From Mycobacterium sp. (lineage in GTDB: Bacteria; Actinomycetota; Actinomycetes; Mycobacteriales; Mycobacteriaceae), in contig DASTKA010000867.1 of the NCBI GenBank assembly GCA_035716165.1, positions 15,198-79,197 on the forward strand: a stretch of 64,000 nt of DNA, given 5' to 3'. This document shows positions 14,384-63,708 of the stretch, one piece after another (position 1 is the stretch's first letter; every line of letters starts with the position of its first letter). The notes under the pieces are model-generated. The model worked only from the letters and a program-made list of their open reading frames with translations, made no database searches and had not been told where the DNA came from. Both the position numbers and the translations under genes were made by a program.

Positions 14384-15276
14384 AAGACGCCGTGGATGCG
14401 TTCCTCGACAGCTGTCGGCAGCAAGAGCTGTCCCCGCGGTCGCTGCTTGCGTACGAAGATCGCGCCCAGTTGATCGTCGGCCCAGCGATGAAGCGACCGA
14501 TCCGCCACCTCCTGGGACGCGGCGCCGAGTTGTACGCAGCGGCGCAGGTCTATCCGGCTGGGCACCGACTTGCAGGCAAGAGACGCAGCGCAGACACCCA
14601 TCGCAACGCACTGACCGTTGGCAGAATGATCGGCGATCTATGCGTCAAACGCGGATGGCTCAAGATCAACCCGTTTGTCGATGTCGAGCCCGTTGGCGCG
14701 CGGCGTCATGGAGCCGACAAGATCCACCTGACCCTCGACGAGGTGCGCAAGCTCGAGGCGTGGTGCCTTGAACATGCCAGCGAGCTGCGCTCGACGTTAA
14801 CGATGGCGTACATGTTCCTCGGATGCCGCACGAGCGAAATCACGAGCCGAAACGTGCGAGACGTTGACGACGGCGGTCGACTGCTGTGGATCCGGGACAC
14901 GAAAAGTGCAGCGGGAACGCGACGACTGGTCGTTCCGGACGTGTTGGCCCCGATGCTTGTCGCAGTGTGCGCCGGCCGGCCGGCGGATGCACCGCTGTTT
15001 CTTGGCGTCGAGGGCGCCCGGCTCTCCCTGGGGATCGCGACGCGCCTCGTGCGCAGCGTGTGCGTCGCGGCCGAGGTCCCAGAGGTGACGCCCCAGGCGC
15101 TGCGCCGGACCCTGGCCACGTTGGCCACAGATGCCGGAGTCGCCGGCCTGGCGCTCGCCGCGAGCCTCGGTCATGCGTCACCGGACATCACGAACGAGGC
15201 GTACATCGCGCGCGGCGGCGCTGCAGCGGCTGCCGCGGCACGCGGCATTCGCGTGATCCAGGGCGGACGTAAGTAG
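14215..15276 (+). CDS. int: Tyrosine recombinase / phage integrase
   Basis: GCRTSE (R), TKS (K), QALRR, LGH, EAY (Y) catalytic motifs; GAGGAG SD; N-terminal arm-binding-like region. Confidence 0.9.
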   Translation: MRRRYNGPYRHGKQWRVAVITTSEGERSTEYETFPTRTEAEGFIDGARDEGQGFTVKDAVDAFLDSCRQQELSPRSLLAYEDRAQLIVGPAMKRPIRHLLGRGAELYAAAQVYPAGHRLAGKRRSADTHRNALTVGRMIGDLCVKRGWLKINPFVDVEPVGARRHGADKIHLTLDEVRKLEAWCLEHASELRSTLTMAYMFLGCRTSEITSRNVRDVDDGGRLLWIRDTKSAAGTRRLVVPDVLAPMLVAVCAGRPADAPLFLGVEGARLSLGIATRLVRSVCVAAEVPEVTPQALRRTLATLATDAGVAGLALAASLGHASPDITNEAYIARGGAAAAAAARGIRVIQGGRK

Positions 15277-15597: not shown

Positions 15598-17682
15598 ATG
15601 ACCACCAGTGAGTTCCCTATCTTCGCGAGGACCGTTGCCGAGTCCTTCCAGTCCATCACCAAGGCCCCGCAGGTCTTCGTCACCGGCGTGGATGGCGACG
15701 CGCTGTACCAGCTCTACCTGGCCGCGTTTCCCGAGGGCACGAATCCGATCTTCAGAAAGGCGACCGAGCACGAATGCTCGTGCTGCCGGAACTTCATCCG
15801 TCGCGCCGGCAACGTCGTCTCTGTCGGCGATCAGAGCGTCGTTCGCACGATCTGGGACGAGGCCGCGGATCGCACGCCCGGGCCGTACAACGTCGTCGCC
15901 GCGGCACTACGCGATGCCGTGCTCGCCTATGACATCTCCGACCTCTATCGGGTCAGCGAAAAGGAGAGCAGCTTCGGCGCAGCCGCCACGCGGTCGCTCG
16001 ACTCCGACGGCAAGGCGCTGACCTGGAACCACCTCTACACGGGCGCGATCACCAGGACGCTGCAGGCCGCGTCACCAGACCAGGCGCGCGGCGACTACCG
16101 CACCACGGTTCAGGTCTTCACGCGGGGGCTTGTCGAGCTGGTGCCGTCTGCGCTGGACACGGTGCTCGCGCTCATCGAGGCCAACAACCTGTATCGGGGC
16201 GCCGAGCATAAGGCGGCGGTCGTGCAGTTCATGGCGGCGCAGGGGGCGTTCCGTACGCTTGGCCAGCGCGAGCAGAGTGTCTTCGCGTGGACCCACGCCA
16301 CCGGCCCGGCGTCGCGCTTTCGCAACACGGTGATCGGCACGCTCGTGCAGGATCTCAGCGAGGGCATGGACGTCGAGCGCGCGGTGGCAAGCTTCGAACA
16401 GAAGATCGCGCCGACCAACTACAAGCGCACCACCGCCGTGATCACGCCGGCCATGGTGAAGGGCGCGATGAAGACCATCGAGGAGCTCGGGCTCGAGCCA
16501 GCGCTGGAGCGTCGCTTCGCCACCATCACGGACATTTCGGTCAACGACGTGTTGTGGGTCGACGGCAGAGTCCGGCCCGCAATGAAGGGCGCGATCGCGG
16601 ACACCCTCATGCAGGTGGCAACGACGGCGAATCCGCAGAACACGAAGAAGGATGAAGAGCGCGCCGAGGACATTGGGCTCGATGCCTTCGTCGAGCGTGT
16701 ACTGCCCGAGGCGACGAGCGTGGAAGTCCTGCTCAAGGGCGAGCATCTCGGAAACCTGATGTCGCTGACCGCGCCGGTGCACCCGGAGCCGCGGCAGCTG
16801 TTTCGATGGGCCAACGACTTCGCGTGGTCGTACGCGGGGAACGTCGCCGACAGCATCGCCGATCGCGTAAAGAAGGCCGGCGGCAAGGTCGACGGCGCGA
16901 CACTGCGGGTCTCGCTGTCGTGGTTCAACTACGACGATCTCGACCTGCACATCTACGAGCCTACCGGGCGCGGCGTCGGCGGCGTGCTGGGCCACATCTA
17001 CTACGGCAACAAGCAGGGCTGGACCGGCGGCCGGTTGGATGTCGACATGAACGCTGGCGGCAACCGCCAGTCGCGCGATCCCGTCGAGAACGTCGTGTGG
17101 ACGGACAAGATGCCGAGCGGCGCCTACAAGGTCGTCGTCAACAACTACGTCAAGGTCGAGTCCAGCGACGTCGGGTTCGTCGTCGAGATCGAGTGCGGCG
17201 GCAAGCTGTCGCACTTCTCATACAACAAGTCGGTCCGAGACAAGCAGGATATCCACGTCGTCACCATGCACATGAAGGATGGCGCGATCGATCGCATCGA
17301 GGCCGGAGATCCGGCCATCACCGCGTCGAACATCTCGCAGACCAAGTGGGGGCTGTCGACCGAGCAGTACGTCAAGGTTGACGCCGTGATGCTCTCCCCG
17401 AACTACTGGGGCGACAACGCCGTGGGCAACAAGCACACGTTCTTCGTCCTGCACGGTGCCAGGAACGACGAGCCCACGCGCGGCATATACAACGAGTTCC
17501 TGCACCCGCGTCTCGAGCAACACCGCAAGGTGTTCGAAGTCATCGGCGACAAGACCAAGTGCCAGCCCACGGACGGCCAGCTCTCCGGCCTCGGCTTCTC
17601 ATCGACCAAGCGCACGAAGTTTCTCGCCCGCGTCCAACAGGGCAAGCGTCGGCGCCTGTTCAACATTCACGTCGGCTCCTGA
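15598..17682 (+). CDS. Large conserved phage protein with DUF2135/YfaP-like C-terminal region
   Basis: HECSCCRNFI; LRVSLSW...DLDLH...GGRLDVD...PVENVVW; strong codon bias. Confidence 0.85.
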   Translation: MTTSEFPIFARTVAESFQSITKAPQVFVTGVDGDALYQLYLAAFPEGTNPIFRKATEHECSCCRNFIRRAGNVVSVGDQSVVRTIWDEAADRTPGPYNVVAAALRDAVLAYDISDLYRVSEKESSFGAAATRSLDSDGKALTWNHLYTGAITRTLQAASPDQARGDYRTTVQVFTRGLVELVPSALDTVLALIEANNLYRGAEHKAAVVQFMAAQGAFRTLGQREQSVFAWTHATGPASRFRNTVIGTLVQDLSEGMDVERAVASFEQKIAPTNYKRTTAVITPAMVKGAMKTIEELGLEPALERRFATITDISVNDVLWVDGRVRPAMKGAIADTLMQVATTANPQNTKKDEERAEDIGLDAFVERVLPEATSVEVLLKGEHLGNLMSLTAPVHPEPRQLFRWANDFAWSYAGNVADSIADRVKKAGGKVDGATLRVSLSWFNYDDLDLHIYEPTGRGVGGVLGHIYYGNKQGWTGGRLDVDMNAGGNRQSRDPVENVVWTDKMPSGAYKVVVNNYVKVESSDVGFVVEIECGGKLSHFSYNKSVRDKQDIHVVTMHMKDGAIDRIEAGDPAITASNISQTKWGLSTEQYVKVDAVMLSPNYWGDNAVGNKHTFFVLHGARNDEPTRGIYNEFLHPRLEQHRKVFEVIGDKTKCQPTDGQLSGLGFSSTKRTKFLARVQQGKRRRLFNIHVGS

Positions 17683-17711
17683 TCAACGACCGTCACAAGA
17701 AAGACACGACC

Positions 17712-18116
17712 ATGCAGAACATCTTCGAGTACGCGACCCGCAACAAGCTCCGTTTCGCATCTCACCGCGGTGAGCTGTCCGTCGAGCAACTCTGGGACGT
17801 CCCGCTCCGCTCACGAGACGACTTCAACCTCAACACCATCGCCAGACTGGCGAACATCGCACTCAAGGCGATCTCCGAAGAGAATTTCGTGGAGACGGCC
17901 AAGACGCCAGAGCATGCTCGCCGCGAGGCGGCGCTCGACGTCGTCAAGTACATCATCGATGCCAAGATCGCCGAGGAGAAGGCCGCCGCTGCCCGCGCAG
18001 AAAAGAAGCTGGAGAAGGAGAAGCTCCTGAAGATCCTTGCCGAGAAGCAGGACGGCAAGCTGAGCGAGCTGTCCGAGAAGGAGCTGCAGAAGCGGATCGC
18101 GGCGCTGGAGGAGTAG
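17712..18116 (+). CDS. Conserved coiled-coil phage protein, partner of the upstream large gene
   Basis: FEYATRNKLRF...LSVEQLWDVPL...K/E-rich helix. Confidence 0.8.
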   Translation: MQNIFEYATRNKLRFASHRGELSVEQLWDVPLRSRDDFNLNTIARLANIALKAISEENFVETAKTPEHARREAALDVVKYIIDAKIAEEKAAAARAEKKLEKEKLLKILAEKQDGKLSELSEKELQKRIAALEE

Positions 18117-21252: not shown

Positions 21253-21606
21253 ATGCCGTGGGATGACGACGGAGGTCGGCCCATCAACCCGGATGTCGGC
21301 ACTGCGGCTGCGATGACCGACCGCTGCCCCATATGCGACCGGCCGATCGCCACCGACGAGCAGTGGCGCGCTACGATGCCACCTAGGTCTGCAGCGCGAT
21401 CTGATCTTTGCTGGGACGGCTACGAGTGCCGCACCCACGCCGTGGACTGGCGAGCGCGGGCGATGAAGGCGGAGGCGGAGCTAGCCGCTGCCAGACTACA
21501 GCGCCGCGACATCACCAAGGCATGCTCCGAATGCGGGTCTCCGGCCGATGCGTTATGCATGGGCGTCACTGAATGCATGGTTACCGCAGGAGGCAATCGT
21601 GGCTGA
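21253..21606 (+). CDS. Cys-rich hypothetical protein
   Basis: GAGGAG SD; CPIC, CSEC; HAVDWRARA. Confidence 0.6.
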   Translation: MPWDDDGGRPINPDVGTAAAMTDRCPICDRPIATDEQWRATMPPRSAARSDLCWDGYECRTHAVDWRARAMKAEAELAAARLQRRDITKACSECGSPADALCMGVTECMVTAGGNRG

Positions 21607-22048
21607 GCCGATGACACCGGAGCGACTCGCGGAAATTGCGGCGAGGCACGAGCGCGCATGCGAAGTTGTCGAGGATCCAAGATCTCAGCGTGCTGCGATC
21701 ATCGTCGGTGGATCTGGTGTCTGCGAGACACTGATCGCTGTGCCGGAGCTGCTCGCCGAGGTCCGCCGCCTGCAGTCGGAATGCGAGCGTCACGAGAACG
21801 TCAGCGCAGCGCTTGCCGGATCGCATGCGGAATTGCGGGCTGAGCTTGAGCGCACTCAGCCCGTTCTCGATGCCGCCATCCACGCCCACGACACCGCGCA
21901 CGAGGAGTCGGTGCACGAGCTGCGACGCGAAGGCCCGTGCCGATGCCGGCTGTGCGTGGCCGTCAACGCCTACCGCAAGGCCGCGTTCGTGCTCGCGAAA
22001 CGCGGGCTCAGGGTGACGACCTGCCTGGGCGGAAGTTCTGGGCGGTGA
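21599..22048 (+). CDS. Hypothetical protein
   Basis: AGGAGG SD; MTPERLAEI...VPELLAEVRRL phage motif. Confidence 0.65.
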   Translation: MAEPMTPERLAEIAARHERACEVVEDPRSQRAAIIVGGSGVCETLIAVPELLAEVRRLQSECERHENVSAALAGSHAELRAELERTQPVLDAAIHAHDTAHEESVHELRREGPCRCRLCVAVNAYRKAAFVLAKRGLRVTTCLGGSSGR

Positions 22049-22373
22049 CGATTCTCGTACGCCGCCCGTAGCTCGCGTCGCCTCGACAGCATGGACAACT
22101 GGCAGCGCCGCGTGTGGCGACGGATCGATCGTGATCGCTCGTGGTGGCGCCGGCTGTGGCGATGGCTGACCCGCACCCGATCCCGCCGCCGCTGACCTGC
22201 ACCCGCTCTGCGCGCCGTACCGATACCGCCGTCACACATCGTTCCACATCCGCACTCCCGGTATTCGCCATGACGCAGTTCATCACCGCTATCAGCTACC
22301 CAGCCGTTACCCGGTGATCTTCGCGTCTACCCTTCCATGTATCGCCCTCACTCAGGTGTAGCGTAGCGAGACG

Positions 22374-25300
22374 GTGGTGGCGGATCTCGATTCTCTGGCA
22401 GGTCGTACCCTGGGCGCGTTCGTCCTCGGCGCTCGTCTCGACGAAGGCGGTTTCGGCGCGGTGTACGCCGCGCGGCAGCCGCTCCTCGATCGGGATGTCG
22501 TCGTCAAGGTGATCGAGCCGCGCGACGCCGACGACGTGAGCGCGCTCGAGCGGTTTCGTCGGGAGGCGCTGCTCGCTGCCCGGCTCGAGCACCACTACGC
22601 CGCCCGCGTCTACGACGCCGGCATCGACGGGCAGCTCCTCTGGATCGCGATGGAGCGGATCCGCGGCGTCACCCTCGCCGATCACCTCGCCAAGCATGGT
22701 CGGATGCTGCTCGATCAGTTCGTGCCGCTTTTCGAGCGAATCGCCGAGGCCGTCCATGCCGCGCACGCGCTGGGGATCGTCCATCGCGATCTAAAGCCGG
22801 CCAACATCATGGTCATCGATACCCCGCGGGGCCTCGTGCCGAAGCTCCTCGATCTGGGGATTGCCAAGCTGGCAGGCGATGCCGCCCCGGACTGGCCGGC
22901 AGGATCTGGCACCGGCCACAGCAACTCCCGGCTCACGCCGGCCGGATTCACAATCGGCTCACCGCCATACATGGCGCCTGAGCAGTGGAGCGATCCATCG
23001 GCTGTCGGGCCTGAGGCCGATCTGTACGCGCTCGGCGTCATCGCCTACGAGGCGCTGACCGGGCATCCGCCGTACGACGTCGACACGCCCGAGGCGCTGG
23101 CGACGTTGCATCTCCACGCTCCGATCCCGCGGGTTGGGGATCCAGGCGTCGATCGCGTCATCGCGCGGGCGCTGGCGAAGCGTGCCGCGGACCGCTGGCG
23201 ATCGGCGCTTGACATGGCCGCCGCGCTTCGCGGGGAAATCGATGCCCATCTCGCCGGCCGGCTCCGCACCGCGGCTCAGCAGTGGAACGGCCGCGGGCGC
23301 ACGCGGGCGATGCTGTGGCGTGACGAGGTTCTCGCCGAGGCCGAGCTGTGGGCCGAGCGCAGCGGACGCGCGGTGCTGTCGGTCGTCGAGATCGAGTTCC
23401 TGGACGCGAGCCGCGGGGCGGCAGACGACGCCGCCGAGAGTGCCGCCAGCCGCCGGCGCTGGTTCCGCCGACTGGCGATCGCGGTCGGGGTGACGGTCGT
23501 AGTTGGCGCCGCGGCGATCCAGCATTCCCGTACTCAGCTGCGCGCCGACGCGCTCGAGGAAGAGGCTCAGCTGGCCCAGCAGTACGCCGCGCAGGTCGCG
23601 CGGGCGGCTGAACTCGAGCAGGGGCGGCAGGCGCTGCTGCATGGCGAACTCGCCGACGCCCGCCAGCACCTCGGGGCGGCGTGGCGGGCCGGCGATCGAT
23701 CGCCGGGGACTGCGTTCATGCTTGGGCGCGCGCGCCAACCGCTGGCGGCGGAGCGAGCGCGGCTCGCGGCCACGAGCGGCCGGGCATGGTTGGCGGCGTA
23801 CTCGCCGGACGGGCGGCGGCTGGCCACCACCGACGACGCTGGCGCCGAGATCTGGGACGCGGCGACACACGGGCTGCAGGTCAGGATCCGTAGCGATCAT
23901 CCGGTGTTCGCCGCGGCGTGGCTGGGGGGCGAGCGACTCGCGACCGTCTCGAGCGACGCGGTGCGGGTCTGGGACGCGACCACCGGCGCGTCCGTGCGCC
24001 AGATGGCCGCGCCTCGCCTCGACGGTCGCGCGCTCGCCTACTACCGGCTTGCGGTGTCCGGTGACCGAATTGCGGCACTCGACGGCGACGGCGACGAGGT
24101 CCACATCTGGTCGGTGGCGACCGGGACAGTGCTTGCGCGGCTGCCCCTTGGCCCCGGCCAGAGCTACCCGGCGATCGCATTCAGCGCCGACGGCCGCTGG
24201 CTCGCTGCGACAGGCGGCACCGACGCGCAGATCTGGTCGACGTCGAGCTGGCGGCTCGCGCAGATACTGCGCGCGGACCGCATCCGCGGCTTCGCCTGGT
24301 CGCCGGGGGTTCCGCGGCTGGCGCTGGGGACCGCCGACGGGATGCTCGAGGTCGTCGAGCCGGCCGGGCCGGCGCGAGTGCTGCGCTACGCCGGCGACGG
24401 TGTCAGCGCGCTTGCGTGGTCACCCGACGGCACCCGGATCGCCATCGGCTTCGACGACGGCGCCGAGCATGTCCTCGACGCCGCGACAGGTCGGGTCACC
24501 GCGCGCGCCCGGTATCTCGCAGGCGCCGTGGCGCCGATCGTCTGGCGTCCCGACGGCGAGGCGATCGCCGCATCGACGCCTATCGGGGCGATCGCGGTCG
24601 CCACCGCTGATCTCGGTCTACCGATAGCGGTGATCGATGGCGCCGCGGCGCCGCGCCGCATCACGTGGCGGCCGGACGGCGGCGAGCTTGCCGTTGCGAC
24701 GACCGATGGGCAGACCCGGCTCTGGGATCCTGGCGCGCCCTACCTGCGCTGGCGCACCGCGGCTGCAGCGCCCGACGGTTGCGGGATCCTTGGCGGCGCC
24801 GCGCCTGATGGTCGCATCGTCGCCGTACCGTGCCGCGGTGCGCCGACGCGGGTCTACGACACGACCACAGGCGCGCTGCTCGCCGAACTTCCCGCGGCTG
24901 AGCCTCTGACCGGCGACGTCGCGCTCGCGCTGCCGGTGGTTTCCGCCACAGGCGACCGGGCGGCGATCGCGCGCGGCGCTGCGGCCGAGGTCTACGATCT
25001 GCCCGGCGGCCGACGGCTGGCGGCGCAGACGCACGCCGCGCCGGTGACTGCACTGGCCTTCGCCGGCGGAGATCTCGCGAGCGGCGACGCCGCGGGCGGG
25101 CTCATGCTCGGCGATCGCCCGCTGCCGCCGAGCCGCGCTGCCGTGGACGCGATCGGCGTCACCGCCGACGGCCGGATCGTGGTCGTCGACGCGGAGCGGC
25201 GCCTGCGTATCCTCGCCGCCGATGGCGCGCCGATCGCCGACCTCGAGATGCCGGTGCGCGCCCGCGCTTTGCGGTTCTCGGCCGACGGCCGGCGTATCGT

Positions 25301-25772
25301 GTCCGTGGCCGCGCGCGCCGCGGCGCCGGCGCCGCCGACACTCTGGGCACTGGATCCACCGCGGATCATGGCCACGCTCGGCGCGCAGCCCGGCGAGGTA
25401 ATCGGCGTGCGCTTCACCGCGCGCGGCGTTCTTACCTCCGGCGCCAACGGCGCGATCCAGCTCTGGGACGCAGAGCACGGCCGGCCGTTGCAGGCGTACC
25501 CCGGTGCGCGCCGCCTGCTCGACGCCGACGCCGCTGGCGATCTGGTGATCGGTGCGTCGGACGACGGCTCGGTGCGATTCTGGGACGCGAGCTCCGCGCG
25601 CCTACTCTGGACGCTACCGACGCACACGGCCGCCGTTGTCGGAGTGCGTCTAGACGGTAACTCGCTGATCACGCGAGGTTTCTCCGGTGACGTCGCACGC
25701 TGGACGTGGCCGCGAGCGTGCGGTGAGACGGGTGTCCCGGGACAGGTCAGCTGCGATACGGTGCAACCATGA
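22374..25772 (+). CDS. Hanks-type Ser/Thr protein kinase - TM - WD40 beta-propeller receptor
   Basis: GGFGAVY, VVVK, HRDLKPAN, DLG, GSPPYMAPE, DLYALG; TM LAIAVGVTVVVGAAAI; many (W/F/Y)SPDG...WD repeats. Confidence 0.93.
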   Translation: MVADLDSLAGRTLGAFVLGARLDEGGFGAVYAARQPLLDRDVVVKVIEPRDADDVSALERFRREALLAARLEHHYAARVYDAGIDGQLLWIAMERIRGVTLADHLAKHGRMLLDQFVPLFERIAEAVHAAHALGIVHRDLKPANIMVIDTPRGLVPKLLDLGIAKLAGDAAPDWPAGSGTGHSNSRLTPAGFTIGSPPYMAPEQWSDPSAVGPEADLYALGVIAYEALTGHPPYDVDTPEALATLHLHAPIPRVGDPGVDRVIARALAKRAADRWRSALDMAAALRGEIDAHLAGRLRTAAQQWNGRGRTRAMLWRDEVLAEAELWAERSGRAVLSVVEIEFLDASRGAADDAAESAASRRRWFRRLAIAVGVTVVVGAAAIQHSRTQLRADALEEEAQLAQQYAAQVARAAELEQGRQALLHGELADARQHLGAAWRAGDRSPGTAFMLGRARQPLAAERARLAATSGRAWLAAYSPDGRRLATTDDAGAEIWDAATHGLQVRIRSDHPVFAAAWLGGERLATVSSDAVRVWDATTGASVRQMAAPRLDGRALAYYRLAVSGDRIAALDGDGDEVHIWSVATGTVLARLPLGPGQSYPAIAFSADGRWLAATGGTDAQIWSTSSWRLAQILRADRIRGFAWSPGVPRLALGTADGMLEVVEPAGPARVLRYAGDGVSALAWSPDGTRIAIGFDDGAEHVLDAATGRVTARARYLAGAVAPIVWRPDGEAIAASTPIGAIAVATADLGLPIAVIDGAAAPRRITWRPDGGELAVATTDGQTRLWDPGAPYLRWRTAAAAPDGCGILGGAAPDGRIVAVPCRGAPTRVYDTTTGALLAELPAAEPLTGDVALALPVVSATGDRAAIARGAAAEVYDLPGGRRLAAQTHAAPVTALAFAGGDLASGDAAGGLMLGDRPLPPSRAAVDAIGVTADGRIVVVDAERRLRILAADGAPIADLEMPVRARALRFSADGRRIVSVAARAAAPAPPTLWALDPPRIMATLGAQPGEVIGVRFTARGVLTSGANGAIQLWDAEHGRPLQAYPGARRLLDADAAGDLVIGASDDGSVRFWDASSARLLWTLPTHTAAVVGVRLDGNSLITRGFSGDVARWTWPRACGETGVPGQVSCDTVQP

Positions 25773-25933
25773 GGAAATCCACGAAGCTGAAATTGCGTCC
25801 CGATACGCTGCGTTTGCTCGCCGGGGTGGAACTCCGCGGCGTGGCCGGCGGCGATGGCCCCGAGAGCGGCACCCAGCAGTGCAACTGCCCGGCTCCGCTG
25901 GCGGTCGCGGTGACTCAGACCTGCGGCGGGTGA
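25769..25933 (+). CDS. 54-aa double-glycine-leader peptide precursor (not in ORF track)
   Basis: MRKSTKLKLRPDTLRLLAGVELRGVAGG|DGPESGTQQCNCPAPLAVAVTQTCGG; ATG overlaps kinase TGA. Confidence 0.8.
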   Translation: MRKSTKLKLRPDTLRLLAGVELRGVAGGDGPESGTQQCNCPAPLAVAVTQTCGG

Positions 25934-26245
25934 TCGATCGGCGTCGGGATCCGATAGTACGCCGGACGTCGCTGCCACCAGGCCGCCGCGCCGGCGGTGC
26001 AGGCGATCGCCAGCTCCTCGAGTAGCCGCGGATCGCGGGTGAGTTGCCGAACCTTATCGCGCGAGCTCTGCCGCCTTGCCGGTGTGATCGGGCCACGCCT
26101 CGCGGGCGCGCAGTGCGCCGCGGCAGATCCGCTCGGCCCAGCACTGCCCGATCACGTCGGCCTGGCCGCGCTTGATCAGCCGATCTCGGCCGTAGCAGCT
26201 ATCGCACAGGTTGTCTTCGGGGCAGCAGACGAACGGGCCGAGCAC
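25915..26245 (-). pseudogene. Frameshifted hypothetical gene
   Basis: TAATCT-N6-GTG start; ...KAAELAR stops at TAA 26054-26056, and the +1 frame continues KVRQLTRDPRLLEELAIAC...WWQRR to TGA 25915. Confidence 0.5.
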
Positions 26246-26391
26246 ACCGAGAGATTACTGGAGGAGTTCAGGAGCGCCGAGCAGTGGTAATTTTTCGGCG
26301 TGTCAGCGCAGCCACAACCGCGCAGCCGTCGACGATATCTGCGCTCCGGTACTGCGCTTTCTGCGTCAGCGCCACCGGGAATCTTTCGCCG

Positions 26392-27213
26392 CTATGCCGC
26401 GGCGGGCACGTCGCGCCAGCGCGCGAACCCGCACCGCCGCGCCGCCGCGAGTGACGCTGGACCCACGAGGCCGTCGACGGTCAGCGCTTCGCCGCGCGCG
26501 ACCAGGGTTATCTGCCGAGCGTGGCCGATCTCGAGGTCCTCGCCGCCGGCGTAGTCCACGCCCTCGAAGCCGAGCGCGGCGAGCGCTGTCCAGATCGCGT
26601 CTCCCGGATCGCCGCGGCCACGCTGGCTCGTATTGTCGCGATGCCCCAGGACTCCGACGACGTCCGGACCGCCGGTGTTGATGCGCCGGCCGTTCTGGAC
26701 GACTTCCATTCGCGCGAGCGGCGCGCCGCGGTACGGCCCGCGCGGCATCTGCTCGGGGATACCGATGGCGTCACAGATGGCCGCGACGAGGCGCGCGCAC
26801 GCGTCGATCGTCGCTTGGTAAACGACGCCGTCGCGCTGCTGCACCATCTCGATCCCAACGCTCCACGGGTTCGAACCCTCAGCGTGGTACGCGGTCGTCG
26901 TAGCCAGGTCGGCGAGGCACGCGACGGTTCCTGCGCTGTCGACGACGAGGTGCGCCGCGCTGTGCGCTGGATCCGTCTGCCAGATATCCGCGTAGCGCGG
27001 ACACTCGCCGCCCGGTCCGGCGCCGGGCGTGATCGGCATCGGCCAGTCTCCGCCGGTGGAGTGGACGATCACCTGCCGCACCCAGGCGTGCCGCGAGGTG
27101 CAGTCGCCGCGATCGAGCCGTGCCCACGCCGGGCCGCCGGCGGAGGCGGCCGGGATCACAGCGAGGCCGGGGACTGGGACGAGTCGGCCGGCGACGAGGA
27201 TGCCGCCGCTCAC
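26392..27213 (-). CDS. Endolysin, N-acetylmuramoyl-L-alanine amidase with PG-binding C-terminus
   Basis: VIVHST, SAAHLVVD, AYHA...N..SVGIE, GHRD...DPG; LTVDGLVGPAS. Confidence 0.9.
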   Translation of the reverse strand: MSGGILVAGRLVPVPGLAVIPAASAGGPAWARLDRGDCTSRHAWVRQVIVHSTGGDWPMPITPGAGPGGECPRYADIWQTDPAHSAAHLVVDSAGTVACLADLATTTAYHAEGSNPWSVGIEMVQQRDGVVYQATIDACARLVAAICDAIGIPEQMPRGPYRGAPLARMEVVQNGRRINTGGPDVVGVLGHRDNTSQRGRGDPGDAIWTALAALGFEGVDYAGGEDLEIGHARQITLVARGEALTVDGLVGPASLAAARRCGFARWRDVPAAA

Positions 27214-27437
27214 TCGAGCGCCTCTGCCGCGATCGATCGAATCAGCGCTTCCTCGTCGGTATTCGCGACGCGCTCCAGGTCAGCACGCGCCCCGGCTTTC
27301 GCCATGCTGTACACGACGCCCTCGCGCACGATCGGGCTCGCGTGCCGCGCCAGCGTGCGCAGGTAGCCGAGCTGCGCCGGTTGGCGCGCGCCGAGGCGCT
27401 CCGCGACGAACGTCAGGTCATGCGGCGGGATCCTCAC
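27210..27437 (-). CDS. Small HEAT-repeat-like protein
   Basis: HASPIVREGVVYSM...DEEALIRSIAAEAL; coupled ORF. Confidence 0.6.
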   Translation of the reverse strand: MRIPPHDLTFVAERLGARQPAQLGYLRTLARHASPIVREGVVYSMAKAGARADLERVANTDEEALIRSIAAEALE

Positions 27438-27622
27438 GACTCGCCTCGCATGTACAGTCGCGCCTCGCGATCCTCATCGAACAAGCGTTCGAGCGGCCGC
27501 CGCGCGTCGTAGAACACGCAACCGTGCTCGGTCTCGTGCCTATCTGCTGGCGTGTGACCAACAGGGAGCGCGCACGGCGAACCATGATCGCAAGGCTTGC
27601 CGCAGACCGAAGTGTCGCTCAC
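27434..27622 (-). CDS. Small Cys/His-rich protein
   Basis: GGAGGAG SD, GTGA overlaps. Confidence 0.6.
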   Translation of the reverse strand: MSDTSVCGKPCDHGSPCALPVGHTPADRHETEHGCVFYDARRPLERLFDEDREARLYMRGES

Positions 27623-48545: not shown

Positions 48546-49583
48546 TCACACGTTGAAGTTGCGCATAAGCAGGCCGAGGTCGGCGGACACGACCTTCATG
48601 TCGGTGGCCATCTCGATCTCGTACCGCGTCGCCTTGCGGTCCTGGTTGTACCAGCGCGCGACGGTCTGGCCGAAGGTGCCGACGAGGCCATCGGCGATCC
48701 AGTCGAAGCTGTACAGCGCGCTCGGCGTGAACAGGCTCGGGGCCGGCGCGACGTAGAGCAGCAGGAGCTGGCCGTTGGTCGCCATGAAGTTCATGACATC
48801 GGCCTGGCCCTCGGCGCTGGTCGCCTCGACGCCGCGCGCGATAACGACCTTCTCGATGCCGAGCCATCCGGCCACCATCTGCAGCGAGATCTCCGCCGGA
48901 CCGCCCGGGGTCTGGCCGGCGTTCACGCGGCTGATCACGTTCGGGTGCTCACAGAAGATGTCCCACAGGTCGCGCGAGAAGATCGCGACGTTCGGGATGT
49001 ACCCGCTGTTCTGCTCGAACGCCTTGATCTGCGACTTGATCGCCTTGATCGGCAGCGCCGAGGCGTCGAGCCAGCCGAGCGTGTTGGCCGCGGTCGTGCC
49101 GCCGCCGCCGCTGTTCGCGCCGACGAGTTCGGTCGTCCACACGCCGGTCTTGAAGTACTTGCCGAGGAACAGCTTCTCGCGCCGGATGAGCGCCTTGTTC
49201 GTGCACAGCATCGTTGCCGCGCGATCGAGGTCCACCGGGTTGAGCGCGTTGGCCGAGACCTGCGGACCCATATCGGTGTGCCAGGCCCAGACGTCGGAGA
49301 AGTACTGCGGCGTGTTGTCGACCGAAAAACCGCCGCCGGCGGACTCCGATCCATCGGCGCGGAGTGCCATGTCGTCGCGGAAGAAGTAGCCGCGCGGATA
49401 CGCGATGTACTTTCCGCTCTGCGTCGCGACCTTGACACTCGGCGCGACGACGTTGGCGATCAGACTACCGGGGTTCTGCATGAACCCGACGCTGAGCTGA
49501 GTCAACTCGGGGACGACGTAAACATCGCTCGGGCCGGGTTGACCTCCCTTGCGAATCGCATTGAGACGGTGCGAGAAATCCAT
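48546..49583 (-). CDS. Major capsid protein (lambda gpE-like)
   Basis: LTQLSVGF.Q...IA..V.P.V.V..QSGKY, C-terminal DMKVVSADLG; CAGGAG SD. Confidence 0.9.
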   Translation of the reverse strand: MDFSHRLNAIRKGGQPGPSDVYVVPELTQLSVGFMQNPGSLIANVVAPSVKVATQSGKYIAYPRGYFFRDDMALRADGSESAGGGFSVDNTPQYFSDVWAWHTDMGPQVSANALNPVDLDRAATMLCTNKALIRREKLFLGKYFKTGVWTTELVGANSGGGGTTAANTLGWLDASALPIKAIKSQIKAFEQNSGYIPNVAIFSRDLWDIFCEHPNVISRVNAGQTPGGPAEISLQMVAGWLGIEKVVIARGVEATSAEGQADVMNFMATNGQLLLLYVAPAPSLFTPSALYSFDWIADGLVGTFGQTVARWYNQDRKATRYEIEMATDMKVVSADLGLLMRNFNV

Positions 49584-63465: not shown

Positions 63466-63708
63466 ATGCATCAGACAGCCAAGAAGAAGCTCGTCCTTCG
63501 CAAAATCACCCTCCGCGATCTCGCCAACGTGCGCGGCGCCGCTGACGGAAACACTGTAGGTAACTGCAACACCGCTGCGGTGTGCTTCCCGAGTACCATT
63601 GCCACTGGCAACGGATGCGGCACGGTGACGTGCATGCTCTGCAGCAACTCCACAGGAGGAAGCGTCGCCAGCAACGGGTGCGGCGACAACAGCATCAGTC
63701 CAGTCTGA
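63466..63708 (+). CDS. 80-aa RiPP-like precursor peptide (GA-type leader, Cys/Ser/Thr/Asn/Gly-rich core)
   Basis: MHQTAKKKLVLRKITLRDLANVRGA|ADGNTVGNCNTAAVC...; 6 Cys; followed by terminator. Confidence 0.8.
   Translation: MHQTAKKKLVLRKITLRDLANVRGAADGNTVGNCNTAAVCFPSTIATGNGCGTVTCMLCSNSTGGSVASNGCGDNSISPV

Follow-up and report, generated by a model that had tools for sequence, protein, structure and literature searches.

Here we describe a two-gene cassette in a window of 64,000 nucleotides, the whole stretch analysed (positions 15,198 to 79,197 of contig DASTKA010000867.1, hereafter C867), which was binned with a Mycobacterium sp. genome. The first gene (22374..25772, + strand) starts with GTG in the open reading frame (ORF) list of the window and encodes a protein of 1132 amino acids (aa). 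An alternative start lies at 22377, as the database copy P0001 is one codon shorter (1131 aa). The second gene (25769..25933, + strand) starts with ATG, encodes a peptide of 54 aa, and overlaps the stop codon of the first gene in an ATGA. The initial annotation had described the pair as a kinase with a single transmembrane (TM) segment and WD40 repeats, followed by a short overlapping ORF, and the ORF list, Pfam and hydrophobicity agree with this description.

The kinase domain covers approximately residues 20-290 (22431..23243, + strand). Pkinase (PF00069) matches residues 20-241 (E 4.8e-34, Pfam), phrog_2361 matches residues 23-288 (PHROG), and the catalytic motifs are all intact: VVVK at 42, HRDLKPAN at 137, DLG at 160 and GSPPYMAPE at 195. 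It is a Hanks-type kinase, whose closest NCBIfam model is of the PknB/Stk1 type (E 5e-64), and neither Pfam nor NCBIfam finds a histidine kinase domain in the protein. Past residue 570, WD40 and propeller models are matched.

The best hydrophobic 19-mer of the protein lies at residues 364-382 (23463..23519, + strand; Kyte-Doolittle mean 1.85) and is preceded by a cluster of arginines on the kinase side. A hydrophobic 19-mer is found at the equivalent place in all 40 family proteins scored, with means of 1.2-2.5, some of which are marginal (1.2-1.5). In 39 of these 40, lysine and arginine are more frequent before the segment than after it. The single-TM pattern of hydrophobicity and charge is also seen in 12 further proteins. 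It should be noted that both the TM segment and the topology are predictions from hydrophobicity and charge bias. On this basis the kinase is predicted to be cytoplasmic and the remainder of the protein extracytoplasmic, with the single TM helix between them, which supports the orientation proposed earlier.

An AlphaFold2 model of residues 283-1132, built from 38 sequences (pLDDT 88, pTM 0.76), contains helices followed by a long all-beta region. The top Foldseek matches of the model are tandem WD40 propellers at 12-20% identity, with no close relative among them. Since the all-beta region best matches tandem propellers, the outer region is modelled as a double WD40 beta-propeller (approximately residues 460-1111; 23751..25706, + strand; predicted extracytoplasmic) on a helical stalk. 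The initial annotation was therefore right about the fold and wrong about the count, which it had given as one. The propeller region also contains two conserved cysteines, Cys803 and Cys820, present in 40 and 44 of 44 proteins, respectively.

The small second ORF is not a chance frame, because its product scores 41.9 bits against a hidden Markov model (HMM) built from 38 homologous peptide rows, from which the window peptide had been left out, and because its GC content at third codon positions (GC3) is 0.82. The peptide has no match among Pfam, PHROG or NCBIfam models, and Pfam holds no model for this peptide family. From alignment A3, the peptide is divided into a 28-aa leader of the LxLx(K/R)x5L...Gly-Gly type (25769..25852, + strand) and a 26-aa core that has a [DEQ]-[ST]-G-x-Cys register and three cysteines (25853..25933 with the stop codon, + strand). 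The dN/dS ratio over nine non-overlapping pairs of homologues comes to 0.25 for the leader and 0.44 for the core; the peptide gene is under purifying selection. Cys40 is the sole invariant column of A3.

One type of class I lanthipeptide leader follows the pattern LxLxKx5L...Gly-Gly (bioRxiv 10.1101/2020.03.13.990614). The consensus of the present family fits this pattern with Arg replacing Lys, and 12 of 41 family peptides match the class I precursor model NF038153 at E<=1 (best 6.5e-5). The double-glycine, lanthipeptide-type leader of the initial annotation is supported by the family, while the leader in the window has Pro in place of Lys and does not match the model.

The cores are mostly short and acidic or neutral, with one to three cysteines and a single one in 19 of 41. 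In 39 of 41 cores a Ser or Thr stands four or five residues before a Cys ([ST]x3-4C), compared with a mean of 15.7 and a maximum of 25 after shuffling, and the reverse order, Cys before Ser/Thr, is found in nine. The narrower patterns [DEQ][ST]x3-4C and [ST]Gx2-3C are present in 32 and 30 cores (shuffle maxima 10 and 6). As the sequences are related, these counts are descriptive and not probabilities. The register suggests a thioether ring from Ser/Thr to Cys, which may be made by host enzymes in trans.

The peptide gene also appears to have its own promoter. A TGCG-n-TAnnnT element (25752..25762, + strand) lies inside the final codons of the kinase gene and ends 6 nt before the peptide ATG. 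In 37 of 41 peptide genes a TAnnnT hexamer, mostly as TGCG-n-TATCGT, begins 11-14 nt ahead of the start codon (background 0.8%), whereas a Shine-Dalgarno-like motif is seen in just one of the 41. A -10 element at such a spacing from the start codon is the mark of a leaderless transcript, and the peptide mRNA is likely to be leaderless and transcribed from a promoter embedded in the 3' end of the kinase gene. The element is not a by-product of kinase coding, because copies with a spacer of ~30-45 nt between the two genes retain it at an unchanged distance from the peptide start. For the same reason, translational coupling was rejected as the cause of the ATGA overlap. Upstream of the kinase gene, another -10-like TAnnnT hexamer (22359..22364, + strand) stands 9 nt before the start and is a candidate promoter of the cassette. 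Three of 17 upstream regions examined by eye (L019, L108 and L120) have the same type of hexamer, at 8-11 nt ahead of the kinase start. A scan for consensus promoters and terminators found no site, and none at the hexamer upstream of the kinase. In other peptide genes of the leader family (L238, L240, L242, L244, L264 and L129), a TTGC ~14-22 nt before the start replaces TAnnnT, which recalls the -12 element of sigma54 promoters.

The two genes are found together well beyond the window, as the initial annotation had anticipated. In five genomes (G041-G045), where 150 candidates were scored per genome, 48 of the 53 family kinases that reach their C-terminus have a peptide on the same strand within 350 bp. 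An HMM trained on 11 peptides from GTDB genomes plus that of the window detects a peptide directly downstream of 32 of 35 held-out metagenome kinases, compared with none of 115 other WD40 ORFs, which come mostly from other taxa. Among the 32 matches three peptides are frameshifted, and L114 and L121 are one locus counted twice. The corresponding number for the GTDB kinases, the training set of the HMM, is 11 of 12. Genes truncated at the end of a contig, or followed by less than 250 nt, are not included in these counts. In three further genomes the peptide is present at four of six kinase loci.

The coupling is also seen when starting from the peptide. Among 36 peptide loci not linked to any listed family kinase, eight have a gene for a kinase-TM-WD40 protein immediately upstream. 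These eight kinases (1080-1180 aa) score only 0-114 bits on the family profile, compared with more than 600 for complete members, so the test is independent of the close family. All eight have a strong TM segment, and their core types differ from those of the close family. The distant subfamilies (L232, L234, L237, L252, L254, L255, L261 and L265) each have their own peptide type, and tandem peptides are found in L234 and L255 (four each) and L252 (two). Within the close family, tandem duplications behind one kinase occur in L179, L193/L198, L174, L105, L114 (- strand) and L116, with three peptides in L179 and L193. Some of these copies have brought the last codons of the kinase and the promoter along, and some are frameshifted. 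Further, of the five family kinases that lack a peptide, three (L227, L228 and L229, one in each of three genomes) resemble each other in length (1121-1127 aa) and codon use (GC3 ~0.9) and are possibly orphan receptors. L490 (in G221) and L258 contain WD40 frames of 1886 and 1899 aa that are distant from the family; the leader peptide beside the frame lies downstream of it in L490, but upstream of it in L258.

Residues 280-1132 of the kinase, used as a query, match 43 proteins at 35-44% identity and above 320 bits, and the next matches reach at most 230 bits. Two of the 43 have an NCBI name, both from Kofleriaceae. Close loci account for at least 13 of the best 80 matches listed for GTDB contigs, of which 11 are in Kofleriaceae metagenome-assembled genomes (MAGs) and two in the MAG DP_38, and for at least 43 of the best 80 listed for metagenomes. 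Full-length matches are present in 7 of 81 genomes sampled from the order, and a sample of 120 other genomes from across the phylum gave no match to the family. In general, the kinase family is narrow, patchy and multi-copy, with several to ~25 paralogous cassettes per genome that differ in their cores. Judging from these sequences, the pair is a conserved chromosomal cassette of Kofleriaceae myxobacteria and no invention of a phage, in line with the myxobacterial character that the initial annotation had recognised. In a phylogenetic tree the window kinase sits on a long branch (1.47, median 0.38) and groups with L118, L019 and L016 (SH-aLRT 97), a grouping that is weak because the tree is a quick one without bootstrap and open to long-branch attraction.

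The cassette in the window is nevertheless on a soil phage. C867 is 91,679 bp long, and since it carries a 141-bp terminal repeat we regard it as the complete circular assembly of a 91.5-kb phage, with genes for terminase, portal, capsid, tape measure, endolysin and integrase. Early-type genes are on the + strand and late genes on the - strand, and the cassette lies at the point of convergence of these arms, at ~7 kb from the integrase and just beyond the endolysin (Amidase_2 by Pfam and PHROG; 26392..27213, - strand), the last gene of the converging late arm, which serves here to mark the site only. The binned genome was considered as the host and rejected as unlikely. The tetranucleotide correlation of C867 with the rest of the bin is the lowest of all (0.937; median of 56 contigs 0.989), and the bin contains no second family kinase and no LanB match. 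As homologues of the endolysin, at 45-53% identity, are found in four of five genomes of the Kofleriaceae lineage, the host is probably a Kofleriaceae myxobacterium and C867 mis-binned. In 40 genomes related to the binned one, the peptide finds only weak matches (E >= 0.009).

A contig in Logan, possibly from the source sample, spans 21500-27500 without a difference, and a 240-bp piece from a second study covers the end of the peptide gene with two differences. The IMG/VR contig L361 carries the C-terminus of a family kinase and a peptide, and past these, in convergent orientation, an endolysin that shares 59% identity with that of the window. L118 has a peptide 91% identical to that of L361, together with an integrase and phage-type genes. 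Other phages lack the kinase: it was not found in five related phage records, whose terminases are 62-72% identical, nor in 50,697 INPHARED records. Four scans of viral contigs in IMG/VR gave none with a single protein or alignment A2 as query and one contig with alignment A4. In the fourth scan, with a DNA pattern of promoter plus start codon, 105 viral stretches fit the pattern, but a peptide match is present in none of them. The cassette is an accessory carried by at least two phages. P0010, P0011, P0026 (cluster P0121-P0123), P0027 and P0038 are on contigs of 82-128 kb, which is phage-sized, and may be further phage copies.

The cassette does not bring along the enzymes that its peptide would need. 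Searches of the phage and of 466 kb of family loci found neither LanB (with tblastn) nor C39 peptidases. No LanC and no recurring enzyme were found among neighbour proteins (100 of the 185 neighbour ORFs called were scanned), and no third gene, candidates for dedicated immunity included, is consistently present beside the pair at the family loci. Elsewhere in each of five genomes of the host lineage there are 5-8 C39 and 2-7 LanB matches. The 25 best C39 matches are all more than 6 kb away from any family kinase. In these genomes, precursors whose genes adjoin LanB or LanC carry the same type of leader. The cassette would then depend on host machinery encoded elsewhere, as had been suggested from the window.

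The neighbour that recurs most often, at 9 of 56 family loci, is a protein of ~350 aa that combines an FHA domain with a middle domain and a weak Fis-type helix-turn-helix (HTH). By fold, the top matches are FHA domains that bind phospho-threonine, and the middle domain resembles the AAA+ domains of sigma54 activators. This FHA-AAA-like-HTH family, represented by L128:4574-5872 (- strand) and its relatives in alignment A5, has 69 matches in five genomes; its AAA-like domain has no Pfam sigma54 match and may be degenerate. The number of copies per genome (5, 5, 7, 31 and 21) follows the number of kinase loci (4, 12, 8, 25 and 16), and for 21 of the 69 copies a family kinase is found at a distance of 6 kb or less, ~13 times the number expected (at most 1.6). 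FHA domains bind phospho-threonine, which makes this regulator a natural candidate for the output of the kinase.

What could such a pair be doing? In ComCDE and BlpCHR, the genes for a Gly-Gly peptide and for its receptor kinase share a locus (PMC7595303). The cassette resembles ComC-ComD-ComE and BlpC-BlpH-BlpR in its Gly-Gly precursor in the locus of the candidate receptor, its variable cores and its putative export by a C39 ABC transporter that can be shared (PMC7595303). The cassette also has a linked DNA-binding regulator, the FHA-AAA-like-HTH protein. However, the receptor in those systems is a histidine kinase, whereas here it would be a Ser/Thr kinase of the Hanks type, with a single predicted TM segment and a double WD40 propeller. 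Further, the linked regulator here has an FHA and no receiver domain, and the cores have the Ser/Thr-Cys register. The probable host, a Gram-negative myxobacterium, carries several to ~25 paralogous cassettes. By analogy the cassette would work like a Gly-Gly peptide pheromone cassette, yet a Hanks kinase as receptor places it outside that family. The peptides also resemble the class I lanthipeptide precursors of NF038153 in the leader pattern, the Gly-Gly end and the Ser/Thr placed N-terminal of Cys, but differ from class I clusters in that LanB, LanC and C39 are not in the cassette, the cores are short with few cysteines, and modification is putative. Among lanthipeptides, nisin signals via NisK, a histidine kinase.

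The explanation that we prefer, to which we give about an even chance, is that the peptide is an exported signal and the adjacent membrane kinase its receptor, which together would form a ComCDE-like channel built on a Hanks kinase. The peptide would be transcribed from its own leaderless promoter, whose motif is present in the DNA. A C39-peptidase ABC transporter of the host would cleave after Gly-Gly and export the core, and a class I LanB/LanC pair of the host may close the ring from Ser/Thr to Cys; enzymes of both kinds are encoded in host-lineage genomes. The core would bind the extracytoplasmic double propeller of the adjacent kinase, which would autophosphorylate and recruit the genomically linked FHA-AAA-like-HTH regulator. 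Paralogous cassettes with different cores would then be separate channels, like pherotypes.

Several observations weigh against this explanation. The phage itself has no gene for an FHA protein, LanB or C39. About 22 of 36 sampled peptides stand alone or adjoin unrelated genes, and together with 20-41 matches per genome this indicates that the leader type is general in these genomes. Five of the 53 family kinases have no peptide match, the cores of the distant subfamilies do not clearly show the [ST]x3-4C register, and a test for even numbers of cysteines, as expected for disulfides, is uninformative (14 of 40 even). The regulator is near only 17 of 65 kinase loci, and its linkage to the kinases is not controlled for shared residence in variable islands. 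Finally, the co-variation of peptide and propeller that the initial annotation had suggested looking for is not seen beyond co-inheritance. Core and propeller distances are weakly correlated (Mantel r 0.18, p 0.02; n=36, with five partial receptors left out), but after removal of leader distance the correlation disappears (partial Mantel r 0.013, p 0.43), and leader distance tracks propeller distance far better (r 0.555). As linked genes share their history, the correlation reflects co-inheritance and is no proof that ligand and receptor fit.

Alternatively, the peptide could be antagonistic, a bacteriocin-like lanthipeptide finished by the host, with the kinase as a linked sensor or protection gene. 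The leader is indeed common to precursors in LanB/LanC clusters, the cores are very variable and at times in tandem, as in L179 and L193, and lone peptides without a kinase occur in two related phages (one in G049, two in G050) and on this phage at 63466. However, the short, acidic or neutral cores with often a single Cys, the lack of any recurring third gene that could provide immunity, and the promoter motif and core register that the kinase-linked peptides retain make this unlikely. Just as unlikely, in our judgement, is that the peptide acts inside the cell, either as a substrate of the kinase, as for the kinases of class III/IV lanthipeptides, or as an inhibitor of a toxic kinase. Precursor and kinase domain would share the cytoplasm, and the conserved acidic-[ST]-Gly site of the cores could be a place of phosphorylation by such a kinase. 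The window kinase also matches LanL and LanKC models (E 2.8e-21 and 2.4e-9), but far under their cut-offs (NF038150, 75.6 bits compared with 650; NF038151, 36.2 compared with 575), and its best match is of the PknB/Stk1 type. Unlike LanKC and LanL synthetases it has no fused lyase or LanC-like cyclase domain in Pfam, and no recurring enzyme is adjacent. Further, the Gly-Gly leader points to export, and an outer domain of 650 residues would be left unexplained.

A sensor of self and non-self, or of invaders, derived from kinase-nSTAND1-WD40 conflict proteins and used by the phage for superinfection exclusion or for blunting defence, is slightly less probable again. It would agree with the high and patchy copy number, seen in the few order genomes with full-length matches, and with the long branch of the phage protein. 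Two family relatives, P0017 and P0040, do carry the nSTAND1 domain PF20703, and the helix after the kinase domain aligns weakly with the end of that domain (E 0.06, 8 of 22 residues identical). But unlike the conflict proteins, the window kinase has neither PF20703 nor any other NTPase domain in Pfam, and the linked FHA-HTH regulator suggests a transcriptional output. The least probable explanation, which we consider improbable, is that the cassette is a chance passenger without function in the phage. The absence of the kinase from all five related phages and from INPHARED, and its presence in a single IMG/VR contig in the four scans, would fit a passenger. However, both frames, the catalytic motifs, the TM segment, the cysteine pair and both promoter-like motifs are intact despite the long branch. 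The cassette also recurs at the same site in another phage contig, L361, and L118 looks like a phage too.

Within the preferred explanation, of an exported peptide and its receptor kinase, the role on the phage has to be asked separately. The initial annotation had proposed a phage communication circuit analogous to arbitrium (AimP/AimR/AimX), and both are indeed phage-borne pairs of a small peptide with an export-type leader and a candidate receptor. In arbitrium, AimR is a cytoplasmic transcription factor of the RRNPP/TPR type and AimP has a Sec-type signal. Here the candidate receptor is instead a membrane kinase of host origin, which is chromosomal and multi-copy in Kofleriaceae, lies away from the lysogeny genes at the junction of the arms, and is absent from the related phages. 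Neither a linked FHA regulator on the phage nor anything connecting the cassette to lysis-lysogeny control was found, and this part of the annotation is not supported. Most likely the phage uses the cassette as an accessory pair that adds or jams a signalling channel of the host in the lysogen, and not as a lysis-lysogeny switch.

The phage carries one more peptide with this type of leader, a stand-alone one of 80 aa that is rich in Ser/Thr and has six cysteines (63466..63708, + strand; E 0.0012 when all ORFs of the contig are compared with A3). It is flanked by the start of the late arm and by the genes that follow on the + strand, with no kinase beside it, no enzymes on the phage and no match in NCBIfam or PHROG. 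The lone peptides of the two terminase-related phages that have them are at G049:C1:3209-3346 (- strand) and at G050:C1:30569-30673 (- strand) and 49433-49579 (+ strand); they contain Cys and have no family kinase. Next to the integrase, 15598-17682 and 17559-18116 (both + strand) encode large conserved phage proteins (phrog_1735, E 7e-231; phrog_2018, E 1.5e-36). Upstream of the window, G000:C867:12772-13743 is an ORF of 323 aa that by eye consists largely of pentapeptide-like repeats.

Proteins with a kinase, a TM segment and periplasmic WD40 repeats are known from Planctomycetota and are also mentioned for myxobacteria; the accessible text of that study does not name a ligand (PMC11032199). 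The present family shares with them the cytoplasmic Pkinase domain, the one TM segment, the predicted periplasmic WD40 arrays and the lineage-specific expansion (PMC11032199). It differs in having a linked peptide gene, which the accessible text does not mention for those proteins (PMC11032199). In a search at the level of titles and abstracts, with most subscription journals outside its reach, we found no publication on this pairing of kinase and peptide. The main text of a survey of myxophages, as far as accessible, contains no kinase, WD40, lanthipeptide or Kofleri, although its supplement could list such genes (bioRxiv 10.64898/2026.09.14.751636).

Taken further, the cassettes could amount to a multi-channel peptide-hormone system of Kofleriaceae, resembling the receptor kinases of plants, in which polymorphic, ring-closed peptides are each perceived by their own Hanks kinase via its double WD40 propeller and are read out by FHA-AAA-HTH regulators, and from which phages have captured whole channels as well as lone peptides in order to join in this social code or to jam it. 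We consider this wider picture plausible, though somewhat short of an even chance. Hundreds of Ser/Thr kinases in myxobacteria and planctomycetes carry WD40 or TPR domains on the outside that still lack a known ligand, and the cassette names a candidate ligand for a whole kinase family. Further, its ~45 natural pairs of kinase and peptide permit a comparison of cognate with non-cognate partners. If the proposal is true, a Gram-negative social bacterium would perform peptide quorum sensing via a eukaryote-like receptor kinase, with a phospho-threonine reader as output, and phages would have a route into the social signalling of their hosts.

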